Positions 1 through 53,894 of a stretch of DNA of 64,000 nucleotides are shown in pieces. A program made the position numbers and the translations under genes. The stretch is from Octopus vulgaris. Taxonomy: Eukaryota. Position 1 is the first letter of the stretch. The number at the start of each line of letters is the position of its first letter. The notes below the pieces were generated by a model. The model did not search any database and was not told the origin of the DNA. It was given only the letters and a program-made list of their open reading frames with translations. The stretch spans positions 18,228,001 through 18,292,000 of the forward strand of contig OX597827.1 of assembly GCA_951406725.2 (NCBI GenBank), in the 5' to 3' direction.

Positions 1-288
<288 letters not shown>

Positions 289-520
289 CTTCCGACGCCG
301 TTAGACGTACGTGAATCAGCTCCGTGAATTTGACACCAATTTCATTGGAAATCTATTAATAGGTTTGAATATTTTTTAATATTTCTGTAGCCAAACCGAC
401 CGGCTTCTTGCGGAGCTCGTCGGTTGGGCGAAATTTTGCCCCATTCGGGGTGAAATTGCGTTTGAAAATTTTGAACATTTGACATTTTTCAACATTTTGA
501 ATATTACAACAAGAAAAAAC

Positions 521-1544
521 ATGGCTATGAAGCGAACAGTTGGCTGTTCCTTCCTTCAAAATACACTCCCTCCGCAAACACGCACAACTCGTACAAAACA
601 CCCACTTCACGCCTTAAAAGGCAACAAAGATTCTCCTTCCGAACCGCAGAGCACGCGCTCGGTTCAAAAGGAAAATGCAAGTCATGACGTCGCGTTCGAC
701 GTAATTCTTGATTTTCCCCCTCTGCCTTCACCCAATGCTTTGGTAAGGAAGGAGGAGGGAGAAAAAACAAATACAAAAATCATCACAAACATTGACACGG
801 AGATAAAAGAAAAAACTTCCAACAATTTTGCTTCTGCTGCGAAGCAAATTTCGGAGGAAGTTAAGATAACTCTAGAAGATGTGAAAAGAGCGAAGGAATT
901 GTTAAGGAAGGATGGCAATGGTATCTTCCTCAATACTCCACAAGAGGTGATTGAAAGCACCAACAAGCAAACAATAATTTACAAAGTTTTCGACAGAAAA
1001 CTAAAAAGAATAACAAATGCCACACCCCAACAGTTGGAGATAGCTCTAAAGCCCATTTGGGCCCAAAAGAGCTACGTAACCAAGGGGAAGCGTTTTGGAA
1101 CCGTGGAGGTTCGCTTCCCAACAGAGGAGCTGGCAAGGGCGAACGCCATTTCGCCCTTGCAAACTGAGAATTTGTTACTAATTCCAACCCACCTCGGGCG
1201 AAGAGTTACAAAAATAAAAATCGACCTCGTCCCCCCTGAATTAAATATGTCATGGCTGGTGGCAGCTGTCCTCTATGATATAGAGGACACTACCACCATT
1301 CTAGATGTCAGGAGAGTGAGGGCGAAAAACTGGTTGGGGATGGGAGTGCTGCTTCTTGCGCAAATTCAGCAAGAGAATATAAGTAAAGTCCCTGATTTCG
1401 TAAGTTTGCCGGACGGCACTAGGCTAAACGTTGCTGTGGAGGGGCGAAAGCCAAAATGCTTTCTCTGCAGCAGCGAAAGCCACTTAAAGAGGGACTGTCC
1501 CATTCACAAAAAGAGGATGGAGGCTTTCAGCAAGAGGCAGCAGC

Positions 1545-1590
<46 letters not shown>

Positions 1591-2398
1591 CAAGCAACAA
1601 CAACAGAAACAACAAAAACAGCAAGAAACACCAAAGGCTGCCACACCACCAACACCATCACCAACACCAGCACCAAGACGAGCAACACCACCTCCAACAA
1701 CAACAACCACCACCAAACCAACACCGACAACCACCACCAAACCAACACCGACACCAGTACCTCGAAGGTCGACAGCAGCGACATCAACAGTAACAGGAGC
1801 AGCGGCACCACCGATACCGGTGGAACCAGAAACTTTTCGTCCTGCTACTGAAGCAGACCCCTCAACCATTCCTTTGCCGGATGAAGAGATCTCGGATTGT
1901 GCGAGCTCTGATTCCAACAAAGGAGAATGGAGTATAGTGCCTCCAAAGAAGAAAAGGAGGAAGAAACAAAAAGATTTACAGGGGAAGCACGAACAAATAG
2001 TGCTTCCCAACATCAACAACAACAACAACAACAACACACACTCACAACAACAAACAACAACAACACTTTCGACACCACTACTGCCACTGCCACACACACA
2101 AACACACACAGACACAATTACATCAATAAACACAAAGAACCAAAAACTAGTGGAGTACTTAAAAAACAAAACTAGTACAAATATAACCGATTTCATCATA
2201 CCAACACAAAACACACCACCAGCACACATTCTCACAATAAAAATAAATGCAAAATCATATGATGAAATCAAACAAATATTCCCTAACGATGTGGGATCGC
2301 TAGGGAAAAGTTTCTCGAAGAAACTTTATAAAAACATTGTGGAAGCACCCGTGCAAAAGCACAAGGGAGCCACCCCCACCACCAACAACAGTAAGTAG
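521..2398 (+). CDS. Tx1 ORF1 nucleic-acid-binding (gag-like) protein
   Basis: First ATG at 521 within ORF 479-2398. CX2CX4HX4C knuckle CFLCSSESHLKRDC, then polyQ, a Thr/Pro-rich tract and a basic KKKRRKK cluster. Confidence 0.85.
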
Positions 2399-2435
2399 AG
2401 CCTTTTTTTCTCCTTTTTTCCCCCTACTTTGAGAC

Positions 2436-5400
2436 ATGGCAAATCTTAGAATCGGTTGCTTGAATGTGAGAGGCCTCGGGTCACCTTGGAAACAGGGTCA
2501 CCTGTTAAACGACCTGAGGTTTCATGATGTGGATGTAGCAGCCATCAGTGAAACCAGGCTCTCCGACCCGCAGGAACTCGCAGCCCTTTTCGGCGGATAC
2601 GAGATATTTCTATCTCCGTGTCGGCCGGGAGCGGGCGGTGGTGGTACTGCGGTGTTGTTTCGGAAGGGCCTGGACCTGAAAATAAGGACAGTCTTCTTGG
2701 ATCCGGAAGGTAAGTTGGTGGTCCTCGACGTCGACGGTAGTGACGGCGGTGCTTTCAGACTGCTGGCTGCCTACGCTCCGACAGGAGCAGGGCAGTCGGA
2801 TTATTTCAAACGTCTGGAAGTTTTCCTGGGAACGTCACGCACTCTAGTACTAGTTGGGGATTGGAACGCTGTCTTAGACGAACGTTTCGATCGGGTGGGC
2901 AGGGGAGCGTCTGTTAGGAGAGGGGGAGGGTGCAAGAGCCTCGCCAACCTACTCGGCCGCTTTCAGCTGTCCGACAGGTTTCGACTAGACAACCCGAATG
3001 TGCCAATGTGGACTTGGACAAACCGCATCGGGTCGTCTAGATCGTACTTAGATAGAGTGTTTTGTAGGCCAGCGGATAAGGACAGCGTAGGGTGTCCACA
3101 ATTCCACCTAGTCGAATATACGGACCACAAATTAGTGATCTGTACGGTCGACTTAGATAGGCTACATAGACAGGGACCCGGCTACTGGAAGCTGAACGCG
3201 TCGTTAACGGCGTGCAAAGCTTACAGAGACCGGATTAGTTTACTAGTTAAGCGGGCGCTCACGGGGGCAATCATCAACAACAACTGGTGGTTTGCCCTCA
3301 AGAGAGCAATTAGAGTAGAGTCGATTAGGTATAGTAAGACTCTAGCTATTGAACGTAGGAAGAGAGAGCGGGATTTAGTTAAGAAACTAGACGAGGCTCT
3401 TGACACTGGCATCGCGACCGACGTGTTGGCGGCAAGGTTGGCCCTCGACCAACACTTCGACGCCAAACACGAAGGCTGCGTTGTCAGAGCTAAGGCACGT
3501 TCGCTAAACGGGGAGGGGACTAGAGCCGCTCGATGGGCCCGCGTGGCGGAGGCGAAGCGAGGCAACAAAGCAACCATTCGGTCTTTGGTGGACCAGAACG
3601 GGCGCGAGGTTACCCAACCGAAGCAGATGTGTACGGTGCTTCAGCGGCACTTTGCTCAACTGTTTGGGACGAGCGGTGGAACGGACACCAACGGTACAGA
3701 CTTCGGTGTGTACCTGGACGGACTGCCGCAACTCTCGGACAGCGAGGCGGAGTGCTGCGAAGGACCGATATCTGCCTGGGAAGTACAGGAAGCGATGAAG
3801 AGTTGCACGAGAGGTAGATCGCCGGGTTTGGATGGTCTGCCCTACGAGCTTTACTTTTCGATGCCAGACTTGTTTGCGGACCTGTTGGCAAACGTCTACT
3901 GCAACTGGCAGCAAAACGGGAGAATTCCTGCTTTTGTCTGTCGAGGGGTGGTGGCTTTGCTAAAGAAGGACCCAAACAAGGGGGACGTTATAGGGAATTT
4001 CCGGCCCATCACTCTGCTCAATGCAGAGTTGAAGATTTTGGCCAAGGTGCTAGCCAAGAGATTGGCGCTTGTCGTGGACAAGCTGGTCGGCGGGACGCAG
4101 ACATGCGCTTTGCCGACCAGGTCGATACACGACAACCTCCATCTCATGCGCTACATCATAGAGAGGGTGGGTAACGACGCTGGCGCGGGTGGGGCTTTGA
4201 TCAACTTGGATCAGAGTAAAGCCTTCGATAGGGTCGACCATCAGTACCTGGCAGCTGTCCTCAAGGCAGCCGGCTTCGGTCCAGTCTTCCGCGGGTGGAT
4301 CGCTGCTTTATACAGCAACATCTGCTCGGTGATACGGGTGAACGGTCACCTTTCGGAACCGTTCGACATCTCGCGTTCGGTCCGCCAAGGATGCCCTCTC
4401 TCCTCCCTCTTGTACATTTTGACTCTCGAGCCATTACTGCGCAAGTTGGAGGCTTTGAGGGGCATCCCGCGCGATCTAGGAGGCGGAAACAGCGTGTCTG
4501 CTTATGCCGACGACGTCACCGTGGTGGTGTCGAGCCACAGGCACATTAGCCTGATTGGCGAGACGCTAAACCAGTACGAAGCGGTGACAGGGGCAAAGAT
4601 TAACGCGGAAAAGTCTGTGGGCTTGCAACTGGGCACCTGGAGAGGCAAGCCCATGCCGTCCAACAGCGTCGTAGGGCGCTGGACAGACGGACCCGTTAAA
4701 CTGCTCGGGGTCTGGTTCGGTCCGGACCTCCAGGTGGATAAGAACTGGGAAGAGGTGACGAGCAGAGTGGCACGTCTCACCCAGAAATGGGCCGAGAGGA
4801 AGCTGTCCCTGAAAGGTCGAGCGGAGGTGGCGAATGCGTACATCGCATCCGTCATCTATTACCGCTTGACCGTCGTCCCTTGTCCCAACCGCTGGTTGGC
4901 CAAGCTGGTACGTCTGCTCTTCGACTTTTTGTGGAAGGGTCAGGTGCCACTGGTCAGGCGGTCCATCTGCTGTCAACGACCGCTGAACGGAGGCCTTGGA
5001 ATGCCGTGGTTGCTGTTGCGCAGACATGCGCTCAGGCTGCGGCATCTCAAGCGCTTCCTAGACGGTGAACAGGTGTGGTCGTCTTTTGTCAGACGCGATT
5101 TTCCGCAGCTCGTCTCTTTGACGGAGCTGCAGACCTGGATCAAACGTAGACCGAGAAAGGGCGCTTGGCACCTCGAGTGCCGTCAAGCCCTCTCCGCCCT
5201 CCACCAGGCGGGCAATGCGGTCGGTTACAGCTCCACTCTAGCGTTCTATAGAGGGTTAGTGGAGGAAAAATGCGACGACGTTCTCGGGGAAACTCTAGGC
5301 GTTGAAGACGACGAACTGAGCAGTCTGTTCGGGAGGACTTTCGGGCCGGGGCCGATGGATAATTTCCAGAGGTCTCTCGCCTGGCAGTGCTACCGAGGGG

Positions 5401-5870
5401 CTCTGCCTGTTCGAGATAAACTCTACCGGCACGGAAGTGCCGTCAGCCGGGCCTGCCCGAGGTGTTGCCAGGACGACGAAACCGTTCTGCACGCACTCGT
5501 CCAGTGCCCGAGTATTGCTGAAATATGGGTTTATGTCGAACAGCTACTGTCACGTGTAGGACGGATCCGACTATCGGCCGAATCCATAGTGAAGATTGCC
5601 CCGCCGACCTCCTTTAACAAGGAGGGCGAGGCCGTTTTCTTGTGCCTAGTGGCTGTGGCGAAAGAGGTCGTGTGGTGGACTCGTTTAAAAGGGCTAAAGA
5701 CAGACACTTTCCTCTTTGGTCAAGGCCTCATCAACTTTTTCAAGTTTCACTTGAAAAGGAAGATGAGGTTAGAGAGGAAAGTGCTGTCCGATAGCAAGTT
5801 TTATGAAAGGTGGGTGAATTGTGCGAGACTGGCCTGTATAAATGGACCAGTTCTCAGGTTTCGCCTGTGA
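2436..5870 (+). CDS. Tx1 ORF2: APE endonuclease + reverse transcriptase + C-terminal zinc finger (1144 aa)
   Basis: APE motifs LNVRGL, SET, YAP, GDWN, YLDR, TDH. RT motifs FRPITLLN, LDQSKAFDRV, RQGCPLS, YADD. zf-RVT-like C-terminus. No stops or frameshifts. Confidence 0.96.
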   Translation: MANLRIGCLNVRGLGSPWKQGHLLNDLRFHDVDVAAISETRLSDPQELAALFGGYEIFLSPCRPGAGGGGTAVLFRKGLDLKIRTVFLDPEGKLVVLDVDGSDGGAFRLLAAYAPTGAGQSDYFKRLEVFLGTSRTLVLVGDWNAVLDERFDRVGRGASVRRGGGCKSLANLLGRFQLSDRFRLDNPNVPMWTWTNRIGSSRSYLDRVFCRPADKDSVGCPQFHLVEYTDHKLVICTVDLDRLHRQGPGYWKLNASLTACKAYRDRISLLVKRALTGAIINNNWWFALKRAIRVESIRYSKTLAIERRKRERDLVKKLDEALDTGIATDVLAARLALDQHFDAKHEGCVVRAKARSLNGEGTRAARWARVAEAKRGNKATIRSLVDQNGREVTQPKQMCTVLQRHFAQLFGTSGGTDTNGTDFGVYLDGLPQLSDSEAECCEGPISAWEVQEAMKSCTRGRSPGLDGLPYELYFSMPDLFADLLANVYCNWQQNGRIPAFVCRGVVALLKKDPNKGDVIGNFRPITLLNAELKILAKVLAKRLALVVDKLVGGTQTCALPTRSIHDNLHLMRYIIERVGNDAGAGGALINLDQSKAFDRVDHQYLAAVLKAAGFGPVFRGWIAALYSNICSVIRVNGHLSEPFDISRSVRQGCPLSSLLYILTLEPLLRKLEALRGIPRDLGGGNSVSAYADDVTVVVSSHRHISLIGETLNQYEAVTGAKINAEKSVGLQLGTWRGKPMPSNSVVGRWTDGPVKLLGVWFGPDLQVDKNWEEVTSRVARLTQKWAERKLSLKGRAEVANAYIASVIYYRLTVVPCPNRWLAKLVRLLFDFLWKGQVPLVRRSICCQRPLNGGLGMPWLLLRRHALRLRHLKRFLDGEQVWSSFVRRDFPQLVSLTELQTWIKRRPRKGAWHLECRQALSALHQAGNAVGYSSTLAFYRGLVEEKCDDVLGETLGVEDDELSSLFGRTFGPGPMDNFQRSLAWQCYRGALPVRDKLYRHGSAVSRACPRCCQDDETVLHALVQCPSIAEIWVYVEQLLSRVGRIRLSAESIVKIAPPTSFNKEGEAVFLCLVAVAKEVVWWTRLKGLKTDTFLFGQGLINFFKFHLKRKMRLERKVLSDSKFYERWVNCARLACINGPVLRFRL

Positions 5871-6174
5871 TTTCAAAGAAAAAGGTAATGTAAAAGGAGA
5901 AGAAAGGGGACTCTCTACACCCCCTTTTTTTGACCAGGCTCCCGTTGGCTTTTGTAGGGTTTTTTCCACCGGGAACATTTCGAGACGTCTCCCCCTTTTG
6001 GGAGTTTTTCATTGTTTTAATAATCATTGTTTTAAAGTTTTTTTTTACACGGATTTTTTAACAAACGGACAAAACCCTTTGTAACCTTTCGTCCTGTCCT
6101 GTCCCTTTATGTAATCATGCGTGTCAGCCCTTGTGGCCAATAAAAAAGAATTGATTATTATTATTATTATTATT

Positions 6175-13555: not shown

Positions 13556-13950
13556 TTTCTACTTTAAGCACAAAGCCCGAATTTGGGGAGGGGGTGGTAG
13601 TTGATTACATCGACCCCAGTACGCAACTGGTACTTAGTTTATTGACCTCGAAAGGATGACAGGCAAAGTCGACCTCGGCGGAATTTGAACTCAGAACGAA
13701 ACGGCAGACGAAATACCTATTTCTTTACTACCCACAAGGGGCTAAACACAGAGGGGACAAACAAGGACAGACAAACAGATTAAGTCGATTACATGGAGCC
13801 CAGTGCGTAACTGGTACTTATTTAATCAGCCCCGAAAGGATGAAAGGCAAAGTTGACCTCGGCGGAATTTGAACTCAGAACGTAGCGGGAGACGAAATAC
13901 CGCTAAGCATTTCGCCCGGTGTGCTAACGATTCTGCCAGCTCACCGCCTT
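13556..13950 (-). mobile_element. SINE family B dimer: one head, two bodies with different tails
   Basis: Reverse complement matches the 30209 and 53292 arrays. Junction AAAGAAATA|GGTATTTCG at ~13717. Confidence 0.85.
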
Positions 13951-17937: not shown

Positions 17938-17980
<43 letters not shown>

Positions 17981-17989
17981 TATATATTT

Positions 17990-18216
17990 TTTTACTACCC
18001 ACAAGGGGCTAAACACAGAGGGGACAAACAAGGACAGACAAACGGATTAAGTCGATTACATCGACCCCAGTGCGTAACTGGTATTTCATTTATCGACCCC
18101 GAAAGGATGAAAGGCAAAGTTGACCTCGGCGGAATTTGAACTCGGAACGCAACTACAGGCGAAATACGGCGAGGCATTTCGCCCGGCGTGCTAACGTTTC
18201 TGCCAGCTCGCCGCCC
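17990..18216 (-). mobile_element. SINE-B monomer, full head
   Basis: Complete head, body and tail on the minus strand. Confidence 0.88.
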
Positions 18217-18325
18217 CATACATATGTGCGTGTGCGTGTATGTGTGTACGTATCTGTCTTATATTGTCTCTCTTTGTGCGTATGTGTATACATATGCATG
18301 TACATATATATGCATATATATAAAT

Positions 18326-18714: not shown

Positions 18715-18895
18715 ATATAAATATATATAATGTGTGCTCGAGCGTGTGTATAGTTCAAGAATTATCCTCTATGATGTTTAAGAGTAGATTAACATGCGAC
18801 AGGTCATTTATGCTAATTACCAAACCCACCGCGTGTGTACCGTTGGCGATTTTTTTCCCTCTGTCTTCCCTTCTCTGGATCTTTCCTTCTCCTAT

Positions 18896-18930
18896 GTTTC
18901 CGACGAAGAGCTCTGCTCGAAACGTTAAAC
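18896..18930 (+). ncRNA. Minimal hammerhead-like motif (core CCGACGA)
   Basis: GUUU-CCGACGA-A-GAGC ucu GCUC-GAAA-CG-UU-AAAC. Stems I and II pair. Confidence 0.65.
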
Positions 18931-19029
18931 CCTCCTTCTTTCCTTCTTTCCTCAGCATCCAATAATACTGTATTTGTTCCACGTCCTCGCGTTGTTGTGT
19001 TTTTTTGTGCTTTCATGTTTGTGCTTTCA

Positions 19030-19065
19030 GAACAGAAGTAAGAAAATAGCCAACCGTTTATTCTA

Positions 19066-19099
<34 letters not shown>

Positions 19100-19254
19100 T
19101 TTTTTTACTACCCACAAGGTGCTAAACAAAGAGGAGACAAACAAGGACAGACAAACGGATTAACTGGTACTTAATTTATCGACCCCGAAAGGATGAAAAG
19201 CAAAGTCGACCTCGGCGGAATTTGAACCCGGAACGCAACGACAAACGAAATACT
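19030..19254 (-). mobile_element. 5'-truncated SINE-B carrying the same 3' flank as the 17990 copy
   Basis: Duplicates ~17894-18168. Bounded by the 12-bp direct repeat TTTGTGCTTTCA (19018-19029, 19255-19266). Confidence 0.8.
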
Positions 19255-19313
19255 TTTGTGCTTTCATTTTCTAAGTGCCTCGTCGGCTGAAAATGCAGTG
19301 AGACAAATTTGTG

Positions 19314-19346
19314 CTGATGACGCCTACTGAAGCAGAAACACGTGTC
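19314..19346 (+). ncRNA. Degenerate hammerhead-like motif
   Basis: CUGAUGA..GAAA-CACGUG-UC with palindromic stem III. Stem I does not pair. Confidence 0.4.
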
Positions 19347-20326: not shown

Positions 20327-20590
20327 CCCCGAAAGGATGAGAGGTAAACTCGACCTCGGCAGAATTTGAACTCAGAACGTAATGCCGGACGAAATGCAGG
20401 GGAACCTTTTCTCCATAGTGCTAGCGATTCTACCAGTTCGCCGCCTTGGAATACGTAATAATAGTTCTTTCTACAAAAGGAAGGGGACAAATTGATTACA
20501 TCGATTCCATAACTCGACTGGTACTTATTTTATATACCGCGGGAGGATGAAAGGCAAAGTCAACCTCGGCGGAATTTGAACTCAGACTAA
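20327..20590 (-). mobile_element. Diverged SINE-B fragments
   Basis: Two partial matches to the SINE-B body (GGATGA..GACCTCGGC..GAATTTGAACTCAG). Confidence 0.7.
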
Positions 20591-29760: not shown

Positions 29761-30208
29761 CGCACGCAGAGTGTATATATGGAGGAGAAAGCAGGAAATT
29801 CTCTTGCTCTATGCTCGAACGAGTTAATTAAATATTAAGAAAAACACATTCAACCACGCTGATATGGCGGAGTGAAAGAATAGATATTTTTTCCTGTGTC
29901 TACTTAAGAGAGAAGGCGCCAAAATATCTAGGAAAGGCAGAAGGAAGGCGAAAGAGAGAAAGACAGACAGACAGAGAGAGAGGGGGAGGGGATATAGGGG
30001 AAGAGCAGGAGAGAGAGTAAGACAGAGTGGAAGTGTAAGACGTACAGGCAGGGATATTCGGACAGATTTTCTTTCTTTTTTTTTTTTGTACTTTTTTACA
30101 ATTTGCTTTGCTTTTTTTTTTTTTTAAATACTTTTTCGTTTTATTTATAAAATTTTTTTTTGGTTTGTTTTTTTTTGTTTTTAACTGTATTGTTTATACT
30201 TTTATTAT

Positions 30209-30982
30209 TGGCAGAACCGTTAGCGCACCGGGCGAAATGCGTAGCCGTAATTTCGTCTGCCGTTACGTTCTGAGTTCAAACTCCACCGAGGTCGACTTTG
30301 CCTTTCATCCTTTCGGGGTCGTTTAAATAAGTACCAGTTACGCACTGGGGTCGATGTTATCGACTTAATCCGTTTGTCTGTCCTTGTTTGTCCCCCCTGG
30401 GTGTAGCCCCTTGTGGGTAGTAAAGAAATAGGTATTTCGCCTGCCGCTACGTTCTGAGTTCAAATTCCGCCGAGGTCGACTTTGCTTTCCATCCTTTCGG
30501 GGTCGATAAATTAAGTACCAGTTACGCACTGGGGTCGATGTTATCGACTTAATCCGTTTGTCTGTCCTTGTTTGTCCCCCCTGGGTGTAGCCCCTTGTGG
30601 GTAGTAAAGAAATAGGTATTTCGCCTGCCGCTACGTTCTGAGTTCAAATTCCGCCGAGGTCGACTTTGCTTTCCATCCTTTCGGGGTCGATAAATTAAGT
30701 ACCAGTTACGCACTGGGGTCGATATAATCGACTTAATCCGTTTGTCTGTGCTTGTTTGTCCCCTCTGTGTTTGGCCCCTTGTGGGTAGTAAAGAAATAGG
30801 TATTTCGTCTGTCTTTACGTTCTGAGTTCAAATTCCACCGACGTCGACTTTGCTTTTCATCCTTTCGGGGTCGATTAAATAAGTACCAGTTACGCACTGG
30901 GGTCGATGTAATTGACTTTGTCCCTTTGTCTGTCCTTGTTTGTCCCCTCTATGTTTAGCCCCTTGTGGGCAATAAAGAAATA
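30209..30982 (+). mobile_element. SINE-B tandem array: one head + four bodies, 184-bp period
   Basis: Units restart at GGTATTTCG at 30431, 30615 and 30799. Confidence 0.92.
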
Positions 30983-31029
30983 GGCATCGTAAGCACGCCG
31001 AACAAAAAAGTTTAGTGGTGTTTTGTCCG

Positions 31030-31275
31030 TCTTTGGTTTTTGAGTTCAAATTCCGCCAATGCTGACCTTGCCTTTCGTCCTTCGGGGTCGATATATAAAG
31101 TACCAGTGAAAGGCGTGATCGACCAGTCCCTTCAACCTTCTCCTACAGAAAACTACAGGCCTTGTGTGCCTATTGTAGAAAGGATTGTTGTTGTTGTTTG
31201 GCGAGCTGGCAGAATCATTAGCACGCTGGACGAAATGCTTAGTGGTATTTCGCCAGTCGCTGCGTTCTGAGTTTA
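31030..31275 (+). mobile_element. Diverged SINE-B fragments (alternative tail, then a head)
   Basis: GAGTTCAAATTCCGCC..GGCCTTGTGTGCCTATTGTAGAAAGG, then GGCGAGCTGGCAGAATC. Confidence 0.65.
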
Positions 31276-31750: not shown

Positions 31751-32069
31751 TTTGCATTACTGCATAGTATATGTAATAATGTGAAGTATATTTTGCATAT
31801 TAAAATGTTTAATTTTGGAAATGTATTAAGCAGAGCTAACATAAGCAGTAAAAATACAAGTTGCAAGTATTTCAAAATGTGGGACACTACATGACAAAAA
31901 CTAACAAAAAAAAAGGAAGAAAATAGTGGTGCTTGTGTTCCAAAGATACGATGAGAAGGTTCAGGAGAAGGATAGAGAGATAGGGTAGAGGGAAGGAAGT
32001 TAGAAGGAAAGAAAAGAATGAAAACTGAAACGATAAACTGGGGATCTGAAATGAGTACGAGGCAGGAAA

Positions 32070-32255
32070 TTGGCCCCTGTGCCGGTGGCACGTAAAAAAA
32101 GCACCCACTACACTCAAAGAGTGGTCGGCGTTAGGAAGGGCATCAAGCTGTAGAAACACTGCCAGATCAGATTGGGGCCTGGTGCCGCCTCCTGGTTTCC
32201 CAGGCGCCCCAGTCGAACCTATGCCAGCATGGAAACTGGACATTAAACGATGATG
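32070..32255 (+). mobile_element. 3' fragment of another SINE-like repeat with GAT tail
   Basis: GC-rich island GGCGTTAGGAAGGGCATC..GCCAGCATGGAAA..TAAACGATGATG. Recognised from memory of SINE tails; single copy here. Confidence 0.5.
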
Positions 32256-32689
32256 TCTTACCTATGCACTGGTCAAGTAGAAAAACGATGAGTGATAAAA
32301 AAAAATTGGATTGTTTTTTGGTATCAAAAAAGTGAAGAAAGAGAGTAGAGAAAGTTAGGGAAGAGCAAGTAGGAAGAAAGAGAGAGTGCGGAGAAATAAG
32401 TAAATAAAGATAGACAGTAGGTAGTTGACAGAGATGGACAGAGGAAGAAATGGAAGGCAGTAAAGAGAGAAATGAAGCAGATAGGTAGAGAGGTAGATAG
32501 AGGGGAGAGGAGAAGGACAGGGAAATAGATAGAAAAGAGAGAGTCTTGCGCCAAATATTGAACACTGTGTAGGGTACTGAGTGGGAACAGAAGTGGGTGT
32601 GTGACATTACATTGAGTAACAGCCATAAAATGTTGCACAGAAAGTCAACACACACACATATATAATGATGAAGGAAATTGTTGTATACA

Positions 32690-33535
32690 GTGCTCAGGTG
32701 CACTACAACTAAAAAGAAAAAAATGGCCATCAGGTGTACTGTTGGCGGATTTCAGGACACACGGAAGTTTTGAAGGATGTAGTGTCTTGACAGCTAACAA
32801 CTGATGCGGGTGGTTTATTCCATGCTTCTGCAATTCTGAGCATGAAAAATTGTTTCCGAAAGTCATGGGTGCTGGGTTGTTTTATGGTTTTATAAGCATG
32901 TCCGTGGGTGATTGTCATATGGAATTCAAAAAGGGACCCAAGGTTGTTGCTGGAAATATGGTGGATAATCTTGTGGGTGTCAATCAAGTCAGTTGCCAGA
33001 AGTCTGAGCTTCAATAAATCCATGCCCAGGAATGCAACACGTTCAGAGTATGGTGGATGTCTGACGGCGGTGTTCGCTTTCTTGCACATTTCTGAACAGT
33101 TTCCAAGAGATTTATATGCTGAGCAAAAGAGGGGTTCCAAACTGGTGATGCAAATTCCAAGTGTGGACATACCAATGTCGTATACAATTATAAATAGATA
33201 GCTGGAGAGTGGCTGACAAATGTCTTACTGAGTGATGCTAGCACCCCCTCAGCCGTTTTGACAATCATAGATATTGGCTTCTCCAATGCAGATTGTTGTT
33301 TACAATAATACCCAGATCATGTTCACTAGAAGACTTCTTGAGATTGGTGTTGCTGAGGAGGTATGTAAAGGCTGGATATTTCCTCCCAAAATGCATAGTG
33401 ACACACTTGTCTTCGGTTAGTTGGAGTTGCCAGTCAGAGGTCCACTGCTGCATTGTATCCAGGTCTGATTGCAGGATAGGATCTGTTCTTTTTATTCCAA
33501 GGTACAGCTTGGTGTCATCTGCATATTTCAGCAGA
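32690..33535 (-). mobile_element. Decayed CR1-like LINE 3' part (RT C-terminus)
   Basis: KYADDTKLY..LQSDLDTMQQWTSDWQL..DLGIIV..LRLLATDL..HGHAYK..FFMLRIAEAWNK. Frameshifted. Confidence 0.85.
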
Positions 33536-33539
33536 TGGT

Positions 33540-35248
33540 GGAGTTGCAGTGTACATCCGAGATTACCTCACGTCCCAGGTCCTGTTGTCATATTCACACT
33601 CAGTGAGTGACACTCAAATTGTACACATAAGACAACTGAATATCGCCATATGTACTACATATCGCCCACCGGATGCCCCAAATCACACAGGCATGTTTGA
33701 AGACTGCCTAACAAAAATAGGAGACGTTATCGCCAAACTAGAACAACACAACAGTGTATTCTTCATGGGTGACTTTAACTTCCCCAATGTGGAAAGGCCT
33801 CGGGGACAGATACCCCCAGGGATGAGACACCATCAGCAAGCACAAGCAGAGTCCCTGCTCCACCTCACAAATGCCTCTTTCATGGAGCAAATTGTGCTGC
33901 AACCAACCAGGGCAAATAATACACTGGATCTCTGCTTCACAAAGAATATGGACATTATCCATAATGTTAAAGTGATGCCGACATTGGTCTCGGATCACAA
34001 CATAATAGAGCTGTCTCAGTATGGACCAAAAGCCCCCGCAGACGCACAGCCTATACGAAGCATCCACAATCTCTCCAAACTAAACTTTCATAAAGCAAAT
34101 TGGAAGTTGATTGAGAAAAAGATACTCAAACAGGATTGGCCTAAATTTCTCTCCACACCGGACATTTACATGAAACACAAAGGGTTTCATGTCCATAATA
34201 CAAGCCATATGTGACAAATATGTCCCAGTGTGCAGGGCCAGCACACACAAAAACAGGATCCCTAGGGAAAGGAAGATCCTTATGAGACGACGGACAACGA
34301 TTGCGAACCGCCTGAGCAAGCGCCTGAGAAGTCTCGCCTCGAGAGAATGCTAATGGAAATTGAGAAAAGTCTGCATCAGTCTCATGAAAAGGAGAGAGCA
34401 GATAAAGTAGCTTGGGTTATAGAAAATATCAAATCAAACCCTAAAGCTTTCTTTAAGTTTACCAAAGAGACGGCCACAGTGCGCCAGAGGATAGGACCTC
34501 TCTTCCAAAAAGATGCTTCCCTCACAAGAAATCCCATGAGGATAAGAGAAATACTGAACGAACAGTTCCGAAGTGTATTCACTACACCTCTAGGACACAG
34601 GCAAGTAAACAAACCAGAAGAATTCTTTGCCACTTTACCTGTAGCCAAAGAGGCAAAAATTGAGTACATCAACATTGAAGATGATGATATCACACTGGCC
34701 ATAGATGAGATTGACACAAACTCAGCTGCTGGACCTGATGGACTTCCAGCGATCCTTCTGAAATCGTGCAAACGAGCCCTTGCAAAACCACTACAGCTTC
34801 TTTTTCAGAGCTCTCTTGCAAGTGGCAAGCTCCCAGTCAAATTGAAAGTAGGGATAATATGCTCTATCCATAAAGGAGGAAGCAGAGCAGATGCTAAAAA
34901 TTATAGGCCTATCTCTCTGACCTCACACATCAGCAAAGTCATGGAACGAATAGTCCGCAAGAAACTAATCATTTTCCTTGAAGAAAATGACTTGCTGACT
35001 GACACCCAGCATGGATTTCGACCAGGTAGAAACTGTCTTACACAGCTCCTGCAACGCTATGACTGGGTGTTAAAACAGCTACTAAATGGCTCAAGTGTAG
35101 ATGTAATATATCTCGACTTTGCAAAAGCCTTTGATAAAGTCGACTATGGTATGATCTGTTACAAACTGCGTGATCTCGACATAGGCGGAAAACTTGGAGA
35201 GTGGCTGCACAACTTCCTAAAAGATAGAAGGCAAACAGTGGTGGTCAA
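33540..35248 (+). mobile_element. Decayed CR1-like LINE internal part (APE C-half + RT N-half)
   Basis: YRPP, MGDFNFP, PTR.NNTLDL, SDH; then [29 protein letters not shown]. Frameshifted, cut off at (TA)n. Confidence 0.9.
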
Positions 35249-35296
35249 TATGTATATATATATATATATGTATATATATGTATGTATATATGTATG

Positions 35297-35358
<62 letters not shown>

Positions 35359-35585
35359 CATATATATACATATATATATACATATATATACATATATATA
35401 TATACATATTTATATATATATACATATACACACACACACGCATATATATATATATACATATATATGCATACATATCTATACACACACACACACACATACA
35501 CATATATATATATATATACATACACACACACACATATATATATATATATAATATATATATATATGTGAGTGAGTGAGTGAATGAG
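35249..35585. repeat. (TA)/(CA) compound microsatellite
   Basis: Seen directly. Confidence 0.93.
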
Positions 35586-35589
35586 TGTC

Positions 35590-35822
35590 TTTGTATCTGT
35601 GTTTGTCCCCCTCCCCCAACATCGCTTGACAACAGATGCTGGTGTTTTTACGTGCCCGTAACATTAGCGGTTCGGCAAAAGACAACGATAGAATAAGTAC
35701 TAGGCTTACAAAGAATAAGTCCTGAAGTCGATTTGCTCGACTAAAAGGCGGTGCTCCAGCATGGCCACAGTCACATGACTGAAACAAGTAAAAGAGTAAG
35801 AGTAAACGAGAGAGTAAAGAGA
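35590..35822 (+). mobile_element. SINE-A 3' half
   Basis: Matches the SINE-A 3' region; head absent. Confidence 0.85.
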
Positions 35823-35991
35823 GTTTGAGTTTAGTTTCATATTGAGTTTGAGTGTAGTTCGATGGAGTTTGATCTCAACGATTATATAAGTGCACACTCT
35901 GGCTGCCCCTACAAATTAGAAGACTAATTCGTAGCTGTAAGACAAAACAACAACAAAAAAACGTTTGCAAAAATACAAAATAAAATATAAA

Positions 35992-36365
35992 TGTGGCTGT
36001 GTGGTAAGTAGCTTGCTTACCAACCACACGGTTGCGGGTTCAGTCCCACTGCGTGGCATCTTGGGCAAGTGTCTTCTACTATAGCCCCGGGCCGACCAAT
36101 GCCTTGTGAGTGGATTTGGTAGACGGAAACTGAAAGAAGCCTGTCGTATATATGTATATATATGTATATGTAAGTGTGTGTTTGTGTGTCTGTGTTTGTG
36201 TTTGTCCCCCTAGCATTGCTTGACAACCGATGCTGGTGTGTTTACGTCCCCGTCACTTAGCGGTTCGGCAAAAAGAGACCGATAGAATAAGTACTAAAAG
36301 GCGGTGCTCCAGCATGGCCGCAGTCAAATGACTGAAACAAGTAAAAGAGTAAAAGAGAGAAAAGA
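35992..36365 (+). mobile_element. SINE-A with internal deletion
   Basis: Head, body and tail present. Confidence 0.88.
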
Positions 36366-36644
36366 GTATGTAAGTACTAATATCAAGAAAATATAAGAGG
36401 CAAACGGTAAGATTATCTCGACGGTAGAGAACTTAATGTTAGAAACTAAACGAACAAAAACTGTAAATACTATCACGTTACACGAATCGACGTACACAGG
36501 GTAAATGATATGTTGAGACATCATCATCAACTTTACATTACGTGTATGTGTATGTGTGTGAATGTGTGTCTGTCTGTGTGTCTGTCTGTGTGTCTGTACG
36601 TGTGCGCATGCGTTTATATCTGTATGTGTGTGTGTCTATAGACT

Positions 36645-37000
36645 TTCTTTACTTGTTTCAGTCATTTTGACTGTGGCCCTGCTGCAGCACCGCCTTTTTA
36701 GTCGCGCAAAATCGACCCCCAGGACTTATTCTTTGTAAGCCTAGTACTTTTATTCTATCGGTGTCTTTTGCCGAACCGCTAGGTGACGGGGACGTAAACA
36801 CACCCGGCATCGGTTGTCAAGCGATGTTGGGGGGGGGGGGGACAAACACAGACACACAAACATATACAAAAACACATATATATATATATATACATATATA
36901 CGACGGGCTTCCTTCGGTTTCTGTCTACAAATCTACTCACAAAGCTTTGGTCGGCCCGAGGCTATAGTAGAAGACACTTGCTACTTACCACACAGCCATT
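36645..37000 (-). mobile_element. SINE-A, inverted, with deletion in the head
   Basis: Reverse-complement match. Confidence 0.85.
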
Positions 37001-37042
37001 CCTTTATATATATACTCACAAATATATGCATATACACACGCA

Positions 37043-37132
<90 letters not shown>

Positions 37133-37140
37133 TGTATATA

Positions 37141-37190
<50 letters not shown>

Positions 37191-37455
37191 TATACATAAA
37201 ATTTATATATATACATAAAATTTTCGAAAAAATATATATACATAAAATTTTCGAAAAAATTTTATCAATGGCCAGCACATTAAAAAAATACCCTTAAAGG
37301 TTAAATTTATAAACAACTTATAAACAAAGGCAAAAGAAAAAAATTTCAATGCCAAATATGCCGAAATAGACTTAATCGTCAATAACCATATAATTTATCC
37401 CTATAAGCACGCGTCTCGAAAGCAAGCCGACAGAGATTTCTAAAAAAATTCGTCA

Positions 37456-37517
37456 TTATCGGATAGGTCCCAATTTCTGAGTTAATTCATTTAGAATTTT
37501 CTCGTCATCAGCGATAA
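37456..37517 (-). ncRNA. Type I hammerhead motif in the left foldback arm
   Basis: UUAUCG-CUGAUGA-c-GAG..AAUUC uaaau GAAUU..CUC-a-GAAA-UUGGGACCUA-UC-CGAUAA. 6-bp stem I, AUC triplet. Confidence 0.7.
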
Positions 37518-37667
37518 ATACGATAAGACAATAAATGAGATACTTACTTGTACCCATGGAAGAAGTAAACACAAGTCATGAGCACACTTAAGTACCCCCA
37601 AATATATCCAAAATAGAATTTCCACAGCATACGTAAGTAATTATCTCATTTATTTTCTTATCGTATT

Positions 37668-37729
37668 TTTTCGCTGATGACGAGAAAATTCTAAATGAAT
37701 AAACTCAGAAATTGGGACCGATCCGTTAA
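37668..37729 (+). ncRNA. Hammerhead motif in the right foldback arm (stem I decayed)
   Basis: Mirror copy of 37456-37517. Confidence 0.55.
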
Positions 37730-37924
37730 TAACGACATTTTTTAGAAATTTCCATCGGCTTGCTTTCGAGACGCCTGCTTATAGTGATAAATTATATGGT
37801 TATTGACGATTAAGTCTATTTCGGCATATTTGGCATTGAAATTTTTTTGTTTTGCCCTTGTTTATATATATATATATAAAGTAAATAATGGAGTTGAACG
37901 CAGGTGTTATTCAAATTCTTTTAA

Positions 37925-38008
37925 TTTCAACATATGTTTCGAAGACAACGTTGGTTTTATTCCAAAGGAATAAACTGTGTAAAATAATGTAATCTTCTCA
38001 TCAGGAAA
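37925..38008 (-). ncRNA. Type I hammerhead ribozyme with canonical core and extended stem II
   Basis: UUUC-CUGAUGA-GAAGAU..(UUUAUUCC uuu GGAAUAAA)..GUCUUC-GAAA-CAUAUG-UU-GAAA. Stems I and II pair; stem III is palindromic. Confidence 0.75.
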
Positions 38009-38718
38009 GAAAGAGAGCCTATCTCAATAACAAGACATTATAACAATTACGATGACTGCATAAATGATAAACAGAACGTTATTAATAATTTTTTTTTAAA
38101 CCGTTAGTAGATTCGACGTCAAAGGCAGTTACTAGAAAGAGAAGGGTTAAAGAAATAATAAGTAGAGAACAAATAAAGAGGGATACGTTGGTTGAAAAAA
38201 TGTTCAAAGGCTTTGAAGCAGATTTCTCTATTGAAATAAAGTGCAAGTTAAAATAACTGTTCAAACTATAAAGACTGGCAAAATCACTTATATGAGCTAA
38301 AGGTATGTTTCTGCCAGTGCTTAGATTTATAAGATCGCTCTATAAGTGTGTTAACAAGGTGATTCTTAGAGAAGAGAAAATGGAAGGGTTCAGAATTGCA
38401 AATGTTACAAAATCTTTTGTCCTTGTCATAAGGGAAAGAGATGGACGGGATGAACCAATCTAACTTAAAATCCTTATTGTTGTCTTTAAGATATCAAACC
38501 AATTTACTTAGCCCTGTGCTATGACGTTTACTGCTATCCCTAAATGAAGAATAATGATTGGAAATTCTCTTAGATAACTGGGAAGAGGATGCACCAATAT
38601 AGAAATAAACATCGGTACCGCAAGAAATTTTACATTGGTATATAGAATTCTTAATCTTAGAATTATTGACATAAATTTAATTCTGTTGGGGTTATCCTCA
38701 GAAACCAAAACTATATTG

Positions 38719-38756
<38 letters not shown>

Positions 38757-38789
38757 GACCAGTTTCCTGACATCTGTGGAAGTCTATAT

Positions 38790-39600
38790 CGTGATGATTG
38801 TTTGCTTTACCTCCAAAACATTTCCAATCAAAAAATACAGAAGGTTAAGAATAGGTTAGTTAGGTTTTTTCGTAGAATGGGCTTTCACATCGTTTTTGAC
38901 GATGAGATAACTAAAGCTAACTTCTTAGATATTACTCTTAATTTGCATAATAACTCATACTTCCCATACCACAAACCTTCCACCAATCTCAAGTATATTA
39001 GTCCATCTAGTATTCAACCTAGAGCAATTACTAAGAATTTAGTTAAAAACATTTCAGTTAGATTGTCTAAACTATCCACCAATGTTGACATTTTTAACAA
39101 GGCAGAATTTTATAACTCTGCCTTAGTTAAAGCAGGGTATAAAGAAAAGTTACATACATTGATTCTGCTCAATCTCATCCTTCCTCCTTTATTCAAGACA
39201 AAACATCTAGTTGTAATAAGAAGAGTGATTTTAATTCTAATATTGAAAACAACATAAAACATGATAAAATTCCTTTACAGAGTAAGGGAGGCAAGCGTTA
39301 TTTAAGCTCATTTTTTCACTCTAGAGGTATTTCACCGTTCTTTATAGATAGTACCACTTAGAATTAGACTGTTACTAGGAAAACTATTTGGTTTGTTATT
39401 CCGTATGGAAGGCATATTAAATCTAATCTTCCTTTGCAGTTCCGTGAAGTGGTTGGTAAGAACTTTCCACAAAATTCTAGATATTATTCAATTATTAATT
39501 CTCATATAGTTAGAGTTGCCTTCTCCAACACAAAGTATCTTTCACAAATTATATGTTCCCATAACACCAGTCTGCTAAATAAAAGTTCATTTCTGAGAGT
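38790..39600 (+). mobile_element. Decayed Penelope-like element RT thumb/linker fragment
   Basis: NFLDITLNL..YFPYHKP..KYI..S..P..RLSKLS..YNSAL..AGY and IWF..PY..KNFP..II.SHN resemble PLE proteins (possibly Hydra clade, from memory). Confidence 0.75.
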
Positions 39601-39657
39601 TCCAACGGTAATTTTGTTAATACCAGCAATTCCCATAATAATAATAATAATAAAATC

Positions 39658-39714
<57 letters not shown>

Positions 39715-39758
39715 GTAATAGTAATAATAATAATAGATACTCACTCTTTGTCTTGCCT

Positions 39759-39797
39759 TCTTTCAGATGAAGAGTGGTATACTCGAAATGTAAAAGA
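39759..39797 (+). ncRNA. Minimal hammerhead-like motif (core CAGAUGA)
   Basis: UCUUU-CAGAUGA-A-GAGU gguau ACUC-GAAA-UG-UA-AAAGA. Confidence 0.6.
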
Positions 39798-40181
39798 CTT
39801 TCCTTCATGCTTTTGTGTTTGCTGCCGCGATGCTGGTTCATCTGGTACCCCAGATAAAAATTTGTTGAGATGTTCTTTCAGCATATTCAATATATGATAT
39901 TTGAATAAAAGAAGGGGAAAAAATACCGCTTGCCAAAGATGAAAGCAAAAGTTTCAAAAAACCACCAATCCTACGATAAGTACGCAGACGAGAAACGCAA
40001 TGAACACTTCAAAAAAAAAAAGCCTACCTTCAGGACGGAATTTGAAGATAGTTTACATACCCCAAATATCAATTGATTTCATGCTGTGCATGAGAGCACA
40101 TGCTTTGCAATCTTCAGTTGGAGATAGTAATATCTATTTCCAAAATATTCACTACGTCAATCGTAGGAGTGATGGTTTTTA

Positions 40182-40383
40182 AAGGTTTCGCTTTCATCTT
40201 TGACAAGTGGTATTTTTACCTTTCTTTAATTCAAATATTTAATATTATACCTATTAAGGTAGAAGTCTTGCTAACCGCCTCATTATTACTGTTTTTAACA
40301 GTAATAATGCTTTCATATAGTTGTTTATAGTTTATATATATATATATATATATTACTGTTTTTAACAGTAATAATGCTTTCAT

Positions 40384-40442
<59 letters not shown>

Positions 40443-40578
40443 AACTATATGAAAGCATTATTACTGTTAAAAACAGTAATAATGAGGCGGTTAGCAAGAC
40501 TTCTACCTTAATAGGTATAATATTAAATATTTGAATAAAAGAAAGGTAAAAATATCACTTGTCAAAGATGAAAGCGAA

Positions 40579-40583
<5 letters not shown>
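40182..40583. repeat. Foldback: ~147-bp near-perfect inverted arms around (TA)n
   Basis: 40182-40329 is the reverse complement of ~40436-40583. A partial direct duplicate lies at 40352-40390 and a diverged homolog at ~39897-39955. Confidence 0.9.
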
Positions 40584-40615
<32 letters not shown>

Positions 40616-40679
40616 ACTGTTGGCGATCCCCCCACACACACACACACACTTTTTTTCTTTTGAACTTTCCTGTGTCTCC

Positions 40680-40716
40680 TGTATCCGAAGAAGAGCTATG
40701 CTCGAAACGTAAAACA
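40680..40716 (+). ncRNA. Minimal hammerhead-like motif (core CCGAAGA)
   Basis: UGUAU-CCGAAGA-A-GAGC uau GCUC-GAAA-CG-UA-AAACA. Confidence 0.6.
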
Positions 40717-41537
40717 ACCAGTCTTTCCTTCTCTGAGCGTCTTTTTGTTACTTGACATGAGCTACGTCTCCGCGTTGTTTTTTTCTTGTCTTTTTCTCGG
40801 TTTTTCTAATTATATATTTTAGTAAGGAGAGACACACAAATAAGAAAGAAGAAAGCAAAGGACCACTGATGCGGTCACAGGAGTGTGACGAAAGAACTCT
40901 GGCCGAAATAAGATTAAGATTAATGTTTAAAAATAAATAACGCTGAAGCAAAGTAACACCAAATATATAGTGCGTGTGTTTTTATTGGCTAAACTGGCAA
41001 AATGACCATTCCTAAATACAACAATAAACGTGTATATATTTCCAGATATTTAAACAAATATTCGTATGAGAGAATTCTGTATATGCAACACATTTCATGT
41101 GTTGCATATACAATTATCAGTCAAGCTAAAAATAGTTTTATAAATCATACATATCTAATTTACAAAGCCACACAGCGCTATGCATTTTTCATAATAGAAT
41201 CGAAATGGAGCAGCTCAAACGGAACAACCTTAGACTCTTGAAAAATACCTATATTCATAATTCTTAGGGAATAAAGATTGATGCATTCTACACCACTGAG
41301 AAGGTGATGAAACTTCTGTATATAAAGTGTAAGCGGTTGAAGTCTCAAGGACTGAAGTCTTCTTTCTATATTTATTTTACTATCTGTGCATACGAGTGTA
41401 GTATGTTGTTTCTGTTATATTTAATTTTAATTTAATATCATATTGCATTGAAATGTTTAACTGCACAACGTATTTTAATTAATTCCGTCTCAAAAATATC
41501 CTGCATTGTTGTGACATTAACATTCATACAACGGTAC

Positions 41538-41635
<98 letters not shown>

Positions 41636-41663
41636 AAGATGTTTATATGTATGTGTGTGTATG

Positions 41664-41705
<42 letters not shown>

Positions 41706-41846
41706 AGTGTGTGTGTATACACGTACACATACATGAACAGATACATAATGAAAAGCACACACACGCACACACATGTATGTAGTATGTATATATGAAAGTA
41801 TGTATGTATGTATGCATGTATGTATGCATGTACGTATGTATGTATG

Positions 41847-41880
<34 letters not shown>

Positions 41881-42345
41881 TGCATGTATGTATGTATGTA
41901 TGTATGCATGTATGTATGTATGTATGTATGTATGTATGTATGTATGTATGCATGTACGTACGTATGTATGTATGTATATATGTATGTATGTATGTACGTA
42001 TGTATGTATGTATATATGTATGTATGCATGTATGTATGCATGTGTGTATGTATGTATGTATGCATGAATGTATGTATGTAATGTATGTATGTATGCATGT
42101 ATGTATGTATGCACGTATGTATGTATGTATGCACTTATGTATGTATGTATGAATGTATGCATGTATGCATGTATGTATGAATGTATGCATGTATGTATGC
42201 ATGCATGTATGTATGTATGTAATGTATGTATGCATGTATGTTTGTATGCATGTATGTATGTATGTACGTATGTATGTATATATGTACGTATGCATGCATG
42301 TATGTATATATGTATGTATGTGTATGTATACATACATATATATAC
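41538..42345. repeat. GATA/TG/TATG compound microsatellite
   Basis: Seen directly. Confidence 0.95.
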
Positions 42346-42699
42346 ATTGAGAGAGGGTGGAAAGGTAAACGGTGGGTGAAAGTCTCAGAAAAACGAGGAA
42401 AACTCAACTCACGCACATCTCACACTCTCACAAATACACAGACATACAATGGAGGATATTCGAAAGCATTCATCGAGCCTACACCACAAATAACAAAAAC
42501 CATCCGTAGTTCCATAGTTACTGCCCACACCACCTTTTTCACTACCATCAACTCTCCCCGGACAGCAACAGTTCGCTGTCTATCATCTCCAGAGTCACCA
42601 TTATCTACAATAACAACAAACAAGACCGCCATTACTATTTAAACTACAAATAATAATCAGAGCATCTCCTCCACACACACACACACACCCTAGCAATAA

Positions 42700-43080
42700 C
42701 ATATCACCACCGCCACCACCACCGCCGCCACCACCACCACCGTTGCCGTCACTGACGCTGTCGCCGTCGCCTCCCGGCACAACCGCCGCCGCCGCCGCCA
42801 GGGCTGCAATAACCAAAAATCTGCTGCTTCTATTTTCATTCTGTCTTTCTCTCCGGCGATGCAAAAAACCGGATGTCGGTTATTGGTACACAACTTCCGG
42901 TTATAAAGATAACGCTGGTAGTATATGCGTTACCGGAAGTGAAGTTCGTGCCGATAACGTCGGCTCTGAGTAAGATGGGGCTTGTGAAAAGGAATGTTCG
43001 GAGCTGGTTTATCATAGTGTCATGGCGTACATCGCCTCAACAACGTCGTACTTGCTGGCTGCTGCGCTAGTTAGCATGTC
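42700..43080. promoter_or_regulatory. Candidate host promoter: CpG-rich island with three ETS-type sites
   Basis: ACCGGATGT (~42868), ACTTCCGGT (~42893) and ACCGGAAGTG (~42932) lie within ~75 bp. GCC/ACC repeats adjacent. Unique in the window. Confidence 0.5.
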
Positions 43081-43124
43081 TCTCTGATATATTTTAACCT
43101 GGAAACAGAAAACTACCTCTTTGT

Positions 43125-43446
43125 TTTTTTGTTTTTTGTTTAGTGTTCCTTCTCGAGCCATGCCTGACTCATAAGGGCCGGTTTCCCAGTTTCTTTGGCG
43201 TATAGGTTCCCCACCGGGACGGGACGCCGGTCCGTCGCAGGTGAGCTGCAAGATACAGGAGGAAAGAGTGAGAGAAAGTTGTGGCGAAAGAGTCAGCAGA
43301 AGTTTCGCCATTACCTTCTGCCGGAGCCGCGTGGAGCTTAGGGTGTTTTCGCTCATAAACACACACATCACCCGGTCTGAGATTCGAACCCACGATCCCC
43401 CGACCGCGAGTCCGCTGCTCTAACCACTAGGCCATGTACCTCCACA
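43125..43446 (-). mobile_element. SINE with C-type head and a different 3' half
   Basis: Head and body shared with SINE-C up to CACAACTTTCTCTCACTCTT, then divergent; A-rich tail. Confidence 0.8.
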
Positions 43447-43449
43447 AAT

Positions 43450-46635: not shown

Positions 46636-46649
46636 CCAATCTGCATTGT

Positions 46650-53291: not shown

Positions 53292-53894
53292 AAGGGCGGC
53301 GAGCTGGCAGAATCGTTAGCACGCCGGGCGAAATGCGTAGCCGTATTTCGTCTGTCGTTACGTTGTGAGTTCAAATTCCGCCGAGGTCGACTTTACCTTT
53401 CATCCTTTGGGGGTCGATAAATTAAGTACCGGTTACGCACTGTGGTCGATGTAATCGATTTAATGCCTATGCCTGTCCTTGTTTGTCCCCCTCTGTGTTT
53501 AGCCCCTTGTGGGTAGTAAAGAAATAGGTATTTCGTCTGCTGCTACGTTCTGAGTTCAAATTCCGCCGAGGTCGACTTTGTCTTTCATCCTTTGGGGGTC
53601 GATAAATTAAGTACCAGTTACGCACTGTGGTCGATGTAATCGATTTAATACCTATGTCTGTCCTTGTTTGTCTCCTCTGTGTTTAGCCCCTTGTGGGTAG
53701 TAAAGAAATAGGTATTTCGTCTGCTGCTACGTTCTGAGTTCAAATTCCGCCGAGGTCGACTTTGTCTTTCATCCTTTGGGGGTCGATAAATTAAGTACCA
53801 GTTACGCACTGGGGTCGATGTAATCGATTTAATACCTATGTCTGTCCTTGTTTGTCCCCTCTGTGTTTAGCCCCTTGTGGGTAGTAAAGAAATA
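53292..53894 (+). mobile_element. SINE-B tandem array: one head + three bodies, 184-bp period
   Basis: Units restart at GGTATTTCG at 53527 and 53711. Confidence 0.92.

Follow-up and report, generated by a model that had tools for sequence, protein, structure and literature searches.

How does a SINE come to form head-to-tail chains in which only the first unit carries a head and every later unit restarts at one and the same base? The question is posed by three loci in the window, the 64-kb (64,000-nucleotide) stretch of repeat-rich animal DNA analysed here. They belong to a family called SINE-B, which has a tRNA-like head, a central domain and a tail of Tx1 type. An earlier note on this DNA described the three arrays and put forward three possible origins: site-specific self-insertion into older copies, cleavage of RNA in the loop of a head hairpin followed by circularisation or template jumping, and a multimeric master copy. 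The arrays are a real, abundant and sharp feature. Among the three origins, self-insertion is favoured here, a multimeric master combined with recombination comes next, and loop cleavage or jumping is the weakest.

Arrays and single copies in the window

When the monomer is used as a BLAST query, 17 related pieces are found within the 64 kb. The SINE-B tail is present on ten of these: six tails run directly into GGTATTTCG, one runs into GGCATCG (at 30983), and three have a free end. The arrays of the earlier note are present as it described them, with four, three and two units at a period of 184 bp (Table 1), and the dimer at 13.6 kb does join two different tails. A complete head had been claimed for all three loci; A53 has one, whereas the head of A30 lacks its first ~12 nt.

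Table 1. Positions of SINE-B arrays, their units and associated elements in the window
Feature	Position	Strand	Description
L1/Tx1-type LINE	288..6156	+	ORF1 ~524-2398; ORF2 2436-5870; between (TTA)n tracts
Dimer A13	13556..13950	-	GG at the junction site of the head; then a B unit and a headless unit whose tail differs
Monomeric SINE-B	17985..18217	-	9-bp target-site duplication; in microsatellite
Lone copy	19016..19253	-	starts GTATTTCG; 14-bp target-site duplication; has the monomer's 3' flank
Array A30	30209-30982	+	4 units, period 184
A30 unit 1	30209..30430	+	tRNA-like head, central domain, Tx1-type tail
A30 unit 2	30431..30614	+	recombinant of unit 3 (5' part) and unit 1 (3' part)
A30 unit 3	30615..30798	+	headless, starts GGTATTTCG
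A30 unit 4	30799..30982	+	variant tail; most diverged A30 unit
Related SINE, other tail	30983..31196	+	abuts the A30 tail at GGCAT of its own head region
Array A53	53293..53894	+	full head, 3 units, of which 2 and 3 arose by recent duplication

The head of the first A30 unit has A-box-like and B-box-like motifs (recognised by eye), and its hairpin (30229-30260) is closed by a G-C pair. Unit 4 differs from the window majority at 14 positions, and units 1-3 differ at 7-9. The joint at 30983, where this array meets the related SINE, is a seventh junction of the same short type, at a non-loop site.

The earlier note had stressed that the units are not identical. This holds for the remaining A30 units, but not for an exact 212-bp repeat at 30328-30539 (period 184), nor for A53, where 53490-53710 (221 bp across the first A53 junction) has only two mismatches to its copy 184 bp further on. 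Both repeats are recent DNA-level duplications, and the second A30 unit is the product of such a local event. Since such duplication accounts for two of the six junctions in the window, at most four of the six are independent. Later DNA duplication also lengthens chains. Growth by unequal crossover, which the earlier note had set against its own proposal, makes up this part of the arrays (two of six junctions).

Non-terminal units always carry the B tail, while last units may belong to another family. The tail of the last A13 unit resembles that of a lone sister SINE at 58317, and A13 is flanked by an 11-bp repeat with one mismatch (found by eye).

Directly behind A13 and A53 (13400-13555 and 53895-54030) lies an oppositely oriented, 3'-cut copy of another SINE, which we take to be CORE-like. 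The two copies are cut off at almost identical points, which may mark another preferred site. At 31175-31200 and 20447-20475, full-length heads stand directly after the simple-repeat tails of sister SINEs, and this is a further, ordinary type of tandem. Upstream of A30 (30187-30201) and A53 (53203-53217), the flanks have a 15-bp string in common, perhaps the end of a small DNA transposon.

The monomer and the lone copy lie 1 kb apart and have in common a microsatellite and ~40 bp of unique flank, the latter found at these two places only. The lone copy, which is 5'-truncated and has lost 27 bp internally, is probably derived from the monomer, its likely source, or from a close sibling. When 17870-18217 is compared with 19016-19253 (minus strand), the copied flank stops just before the T9 run of the monomer locus. 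The lone copy is a local copy with 3' transduction, either a retrocopy beside its source or a product of templated repair. It had been placed at 19030-19254, starting at the hairpin site; the loop-edge start stands, with the copy now assigned to the minus strand and its start to 19253. There its sequence opens with the first paired base of the 3' arm in its source, which gives a single independent example of an end at the edge of the loop. The element that received it (18890-18930, 19280-19345) has motifs, seen by eye, which we presume to be like the minimal hammerhead cores of Penelope-like elements.

The junction in the window and in public contigs

The junction of AAAGAAATA with GGTATTTCG occurs six times in the window, and the 14-mer AAAGAAATAGGYAT occurs seven times, against 0.10 expected from shuffling. 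The head folds as a long stem with a 4-nt loop. GGTATTTCG starts at the first base of the hairpin's 3' arm, and headless units begin at the first paired G after the loop. The restart point is fixed, as had been claimed, but it lies at the boundary between the loop and the 3' arm rather than inside the loop. Neither a second head nor a separate target-site duplication is seen at any of the six window junctions.

The heads at 30209 (with one extra A), 53293 and 18217 read CCGTATTTCG, and the first G of their junctions therefore mismatches their own head. The junction-site base is C in three of the four full B heads, yet G is invariant at junctions. The junction also forms a 6-bp palindrome, GAAATA-GG-TATTTC (chance 0.0005 by shuffling). 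This calls for explanation under any model: a single fold-back could have left it, or the RNA end may pair beside the nick.

Five 91-nt heads gave fold z-scores of -4.9 (A13), -3.5 (A53), -1.7, -1.3 and +1.3. Stem covariation over eight heads is no better than in shuffles, though one closing pair varies on both sides. Slippage between GAAAT in the tail and the 5' arm was rejected as a source of the junction: it predicts that the loop is retained, and none of the six junctions has it. A tRNA-intron origin of the long stem was also set aside, the ARAGORN calls being inconsistent. Searches for ribozymes returned no Rfam hit, no CTGANGA core on either strand of four elements and no HDV-like match at the junction. 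The known ribozyme classes were rejected, HDV-like descriptor hits falling only in the monomer head and on one antisense strand.

Beyond the window, 24 runs were listed and four were compared with 13700-13975, which holds one monomer and 18 bp beyond the junction. The run types, DNA or RNA, are guesses; the matched records number 440,672 (guessed DNA) and 79,380 (guessed RNA). Two raw-read runs gave 15 and 244 matches among 12.9 million reads each, far below what the contig runs imply, and were left out of the frequencies.

Contig depth is near nothing 10-20 bases outside the head's 5' end and high beyond the tail. Under a 31-mer edge model, which fits the head end, as a control, within 1-2%, the junction share of tails is 0.70 in the guessed DNA run and 0.69 in the guessed RNA run. 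When a contig overhang of 5-10 bases is allowed, the fit worsens and the share becomes 0.46-0.31; a model with no junctions at all fails to fit. The junction follows roughly 70% of tails (model range 30-70%), and the window, with six junctions on ten tails, agrees with this estimate. Division of contig depth by an assumed long-contig depth of 55-75 (eight listed contigs span 38-76) gives very roughly 32,000-44,000 junctions and about 46,000-63,000 tails, figures in which summed contig depth is not the same as copy number and long satellites could inflate the junction estimate.

The breakpoint is sharp, since the junction base is where 285 contigs of run X11 (guessed RNA) have a loose end, with a consensus that agrees with the B tail at 0.96. 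Together with the ~70% share, these contigs bear out the expectation that the junction is uniform beyond the window. Exceptions exist, as one joint among the 15 of 523 listed has 21 other letters behind the tail. The listing covers 15 of the 523 joints, 21 of the 798 loose ends and 40 of the 262 letter differences, and neither uncommon junction types nor how often heads carry C or G can be read from it.

Head joints in inverted orientation (31 contigs) and restarts of the head (11) were not taken as a hotspot, since both coincide with mismatches of the reference that break alignments. In run X22, the junction and ~13 arm bases are joined straight to a tail at two loose ends (25 and 12 reads); such short-unit tandem derivatives would be satellites that arose from the junction. 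The window arrays hold two to four partly unrelated units. Pattern scans of metagenome, viral and genome collections returned no loci.

Element class, candidate partner LINE and possible origin of the arrays

SINE-B is short, non-coding, dispersed and present in high copy number, with target-site duplications of 9 and 14 bp, as is proper to a SINE. Box-like motifs and end-to-end pairing are visible in its head, for which ARAGORN calls no genes at default settings and gives inconsistent calls when relaxed; a tRNA match to the head was not found in Rfam. We take the host, from its repeat landscape, to be octopus-like, and the central domain of SINE-B to be octopus-like and Deu/Nin-like. The family is probably already in repeat libraries.

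The LINE of the window is apparently intact, with both ORFs open, and with (TTA)n on either side it is likely microsatellite-targeted and possibly active. ORF2 encodes endonuclease, RT and zf-RVT domains, and its best solved relative is L1 ORF2p. The label 'Tx1' is our presumption; ORF2 homolog, cluster and Atlas searches returned no Tx1 name. The SINE-B tail and the 3' end of this L1/Tx1-type LINE (~6075-6150) are homologous, their alignment scoring 53 (1000 shuffles: mean 22, maximum 41), and the tail is thus LINE-related. Because the alignment is moderate and contains gaps, a relative may be the true partner. A Tx1 endonuclease had been proposed as the driver. The tail homology favours it, but the LINE lies in (TTA)n and no LINE end is seen at the site: a Tx1 LINE 3' end joined to GGTATTTCG is absent among the 21 of 798 loose ends listed. 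In the one LINE copy examined, the target is not shared with the SINE.

Self-targeting is the likeliest single reading suggested by the abundance of the junction and its fixed joint. A specific scheme, in which Tx1-type reverse transcription into SINE heads is primed by pairing with read-through RNA, sealed by homology and supplemented by unequal crossover, is held tentatively, somewhat short of probable. SINE-B would be a tRNA-derived SINE with an L1/Tx1-type tail that inserts mostly into its own and sister SINE heads. Pol III would initiate in the head and transcribe through several units, and a Tx1-type ORF2 protein would bind the tail. An existing head would be nicked at its loop edge or close to it, which would supply a primer that pairs with the read-through GGUAUUUCG of the RNA. 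Copying would then begin at the very end of the tail, with the RNA as template for the junction and for its first G. The cDNA would anneal to the homologous head left of the nick, leaving no second head. Each event would add at least one headless unit in front of the old body, and units would then be duplicated locally by unequal crossover or slippage. In this scheme, transcription, the identity of the enzyme involved, the nick and how specific that nick is are what we infer.

Observed outright are the exact junction, its abundance, the tail homology, the mixed units and the local duplications. The LINE-type tail is complete at all six junctions, which is the mark of reverse transcription starting there. 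Only one T4 run lies inside the three arrays; with almost no T4 terminator, read-through RNA would carry the tail and GGUAUUUCG. Pairing of GGUAUUUCG with the primer would explain the fixed junction G despite the C of most full B heads, and upstream homology would explain the absent second head. Also in favour, independent A30 units differ at 16-19 of 184 positions (unlinked copies mostly at 13-22), all six upstream units have the B tail and one of the three last units has another family's tail, and a diverged arm leads to the junction side at nine joints (154 contigs) among the 15 of 523 joints listed. The A30 head starts at TGGCA, matching the GGCAT joint of the sister head, and is counted on the same side; together with the joint at 30983 it fits the same rule at a non-loop site, though a deletion could produce this arrangement as well.

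Other observations count against self-insertion. Units 1 and 3 of A53 differ at ten positions and have three private variants in common, which is unexpected for a random target. The last units are older in A30, not in A53, and equal in A13. The only L1/Tx1-type LINE of the window does not sit in a SINE head, and the last A13 unit has a B-like arm beside its junction, which is not so in the lone sister SINE whose tail it shares. Head restarts of the kind that a full-length insertion with a duplication could leave are rare and ambiguous (6 and 5 contigs among the 15 of 523 joints listed). The start of the lone copy at 19253 is unaccounted for by the model.

The lack of a consistent age gradient and of a shared target in the LINE copy examined, the related A53 units and the B-like A13 arm fit a single old junction that has since been exchanged. 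On that account, which we consider rather unlikely, a dimeric or multimeric master was retrotransposed whole and its junction was spread by homologous exchange without site specificity, through RT template switching in the shared body, gene conversion or unequal crossover. Such exchange also swaps the last tails, and makes a specific nick unnecessary. The locally duplicated junctions and the kinship of the A53 units speak for it, as does the invariance of the junction G in a family whose full heads mostly carry C, and a single fold-back could have left the palindrome behind. A comparable layout in the blood clam, with one head followed by headless repeats, is ascribed to unequal recombination (PMC11481361), although the accessible text describes clam inner tails as truncated, whereas SINE-B tails are complete at a LINE-type end. 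Against this account, the fourth A30 unit departs from its neighbours less than 14 nt after the junction although the tail in front of it is of the common type, and exchange would require a crossover confined to ~23 nt. The GGCAT junction at 30983, moreover, is not a copy of the standard one.

An improbable alternative starts from free ends at the loop edge, left by an RNA nuclease cut or by clipping of a folded-back cDNA, from which RT restarts on another SINE tail or on a circularised unit within one insertion. The lone copy, with its 14-bp duplication, provides one case of such an end, and L1 ORF2p yields template-jump concatemers in vitro (PMC10830420, accessible text). The head is about two-fold under-represented in the guessed RNA run (tail/head 3.8 versus 2.2), a run that is RNA by guess only and whose contigs cannot show ends. 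The heads of A13 and A53 fold strongly. Against this alternative, the ribozyme searches detected no Rfam ribozyme, hammerhead core or HDV-like junction match, and the junction share is equal in the two run types. The hairpin is common to sister SINEs, yet their tails are not seen before the junction. In addition, Pol III transcripts need extra processing to end at the tail.

Self-insertion has a stronger form, a possible but distinctly more tentative one, in which the SINE homes into itself. The multimeric RNA would carry its own target downstream of the tail and serve as both guide and template; pairing of the tail end with the target TATTTC beside the nick would perhaps assist. Each insertion would remake the target and a junction-bearing template. 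If this were true, roughly two in three copies of a family numbering tens of thousands would lie in chains in older SINE heads, a self-made safe harbour.

A SINE aimed mainly at its own promoter region could multiply while sparing new host sites, and each chain would still be headed by a promoter. For a major SINE of this genome, copy counts and age profiles would also be misread, one locus holding units of different ages.

Comparison with known systems

Tandem Tx1-targeted SINEs are already known; what is new is that these Tx1-linked tandems are unusual in scale and, on the favoured reading, in targeting their own head. No description of these arrays was found in the literature, and an earlier one is possible in octopus SINE or genome papers, Repbase or Dfam. 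The octopus OK and OR SINE families, of the tRNA-Deu/Nin type, were reportedly described by Ohshima and Okada in 1994. SINE-B is presumed to resemble octopus SINEs of this type. In the accessible text of PMC8967140, tRNA-Deu SINEs are named as the main octopus SINEs. The accessible part of a 2026 Octopus vulgaris repeat annotation reports 13 recently active L1-Tx1 families and does not mention such arrays.

The systems below are compared as far as the accessible parts of their accounts describe them. Non-LTR retrozymes also form tandem genomic units, of 170-400 nt, but are defined by hammerhead ribozymes and circular RNA (PMC7229834), whereas SINE-B has no hammerhead, a tRNA-like head and a LINE tail. 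Squamate SINE-derived satellites and the Dip/B1 multimers of jerboas resemble SINE-B in their tandem SINE parts and local duplication (PMC10702118). Nearly half of jerboa Dip copies are in multimers; these consist of full-length units, and a fixed restart in a head hairpin is not described in that part of the source (PMC10702118).

Closer in layout are the HCD-SINE arrays of another mollusc, Scapharca broughtonii, in which a headed first unit is followed by units whose heads are truncated at one position (PMC11481361). Their inner tails are truncated, and they comprise ~3% of copies and one family (PMC11481361), while SINE-B arrays have complete tails, involve ~70% of tails and mix families.

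Target-specific Tx1 systems, as described in the accessible literature, aim at host RNA genes, microsatellites or other transposons. Annealing of RNA to the target increases efficiency or accuracy for SART1 and R2Ol (PMC7265360, PMC6795142). Like SINEU-3 with Tx1-Mar in crocodilians, and Tx1L in Tx1D, SINE-B would be a SINE moved by a Tx1-clade LINE (PMC4494074). SINEU-3 likewise uses a fixed site in an abundant repeat, where tandem copies arise by sequential insertion (PMC4494074). Each tandem copy of SINEU-3 is complete, and a target-site duplication lies between copies (PMC4494074), whereas the inner units of SINE-B are headless with no duplication between them. The SINEU-3 target is another element, Mariner-N4_AMi (PMC4494074), while the site of SINE-B lies in its own head.
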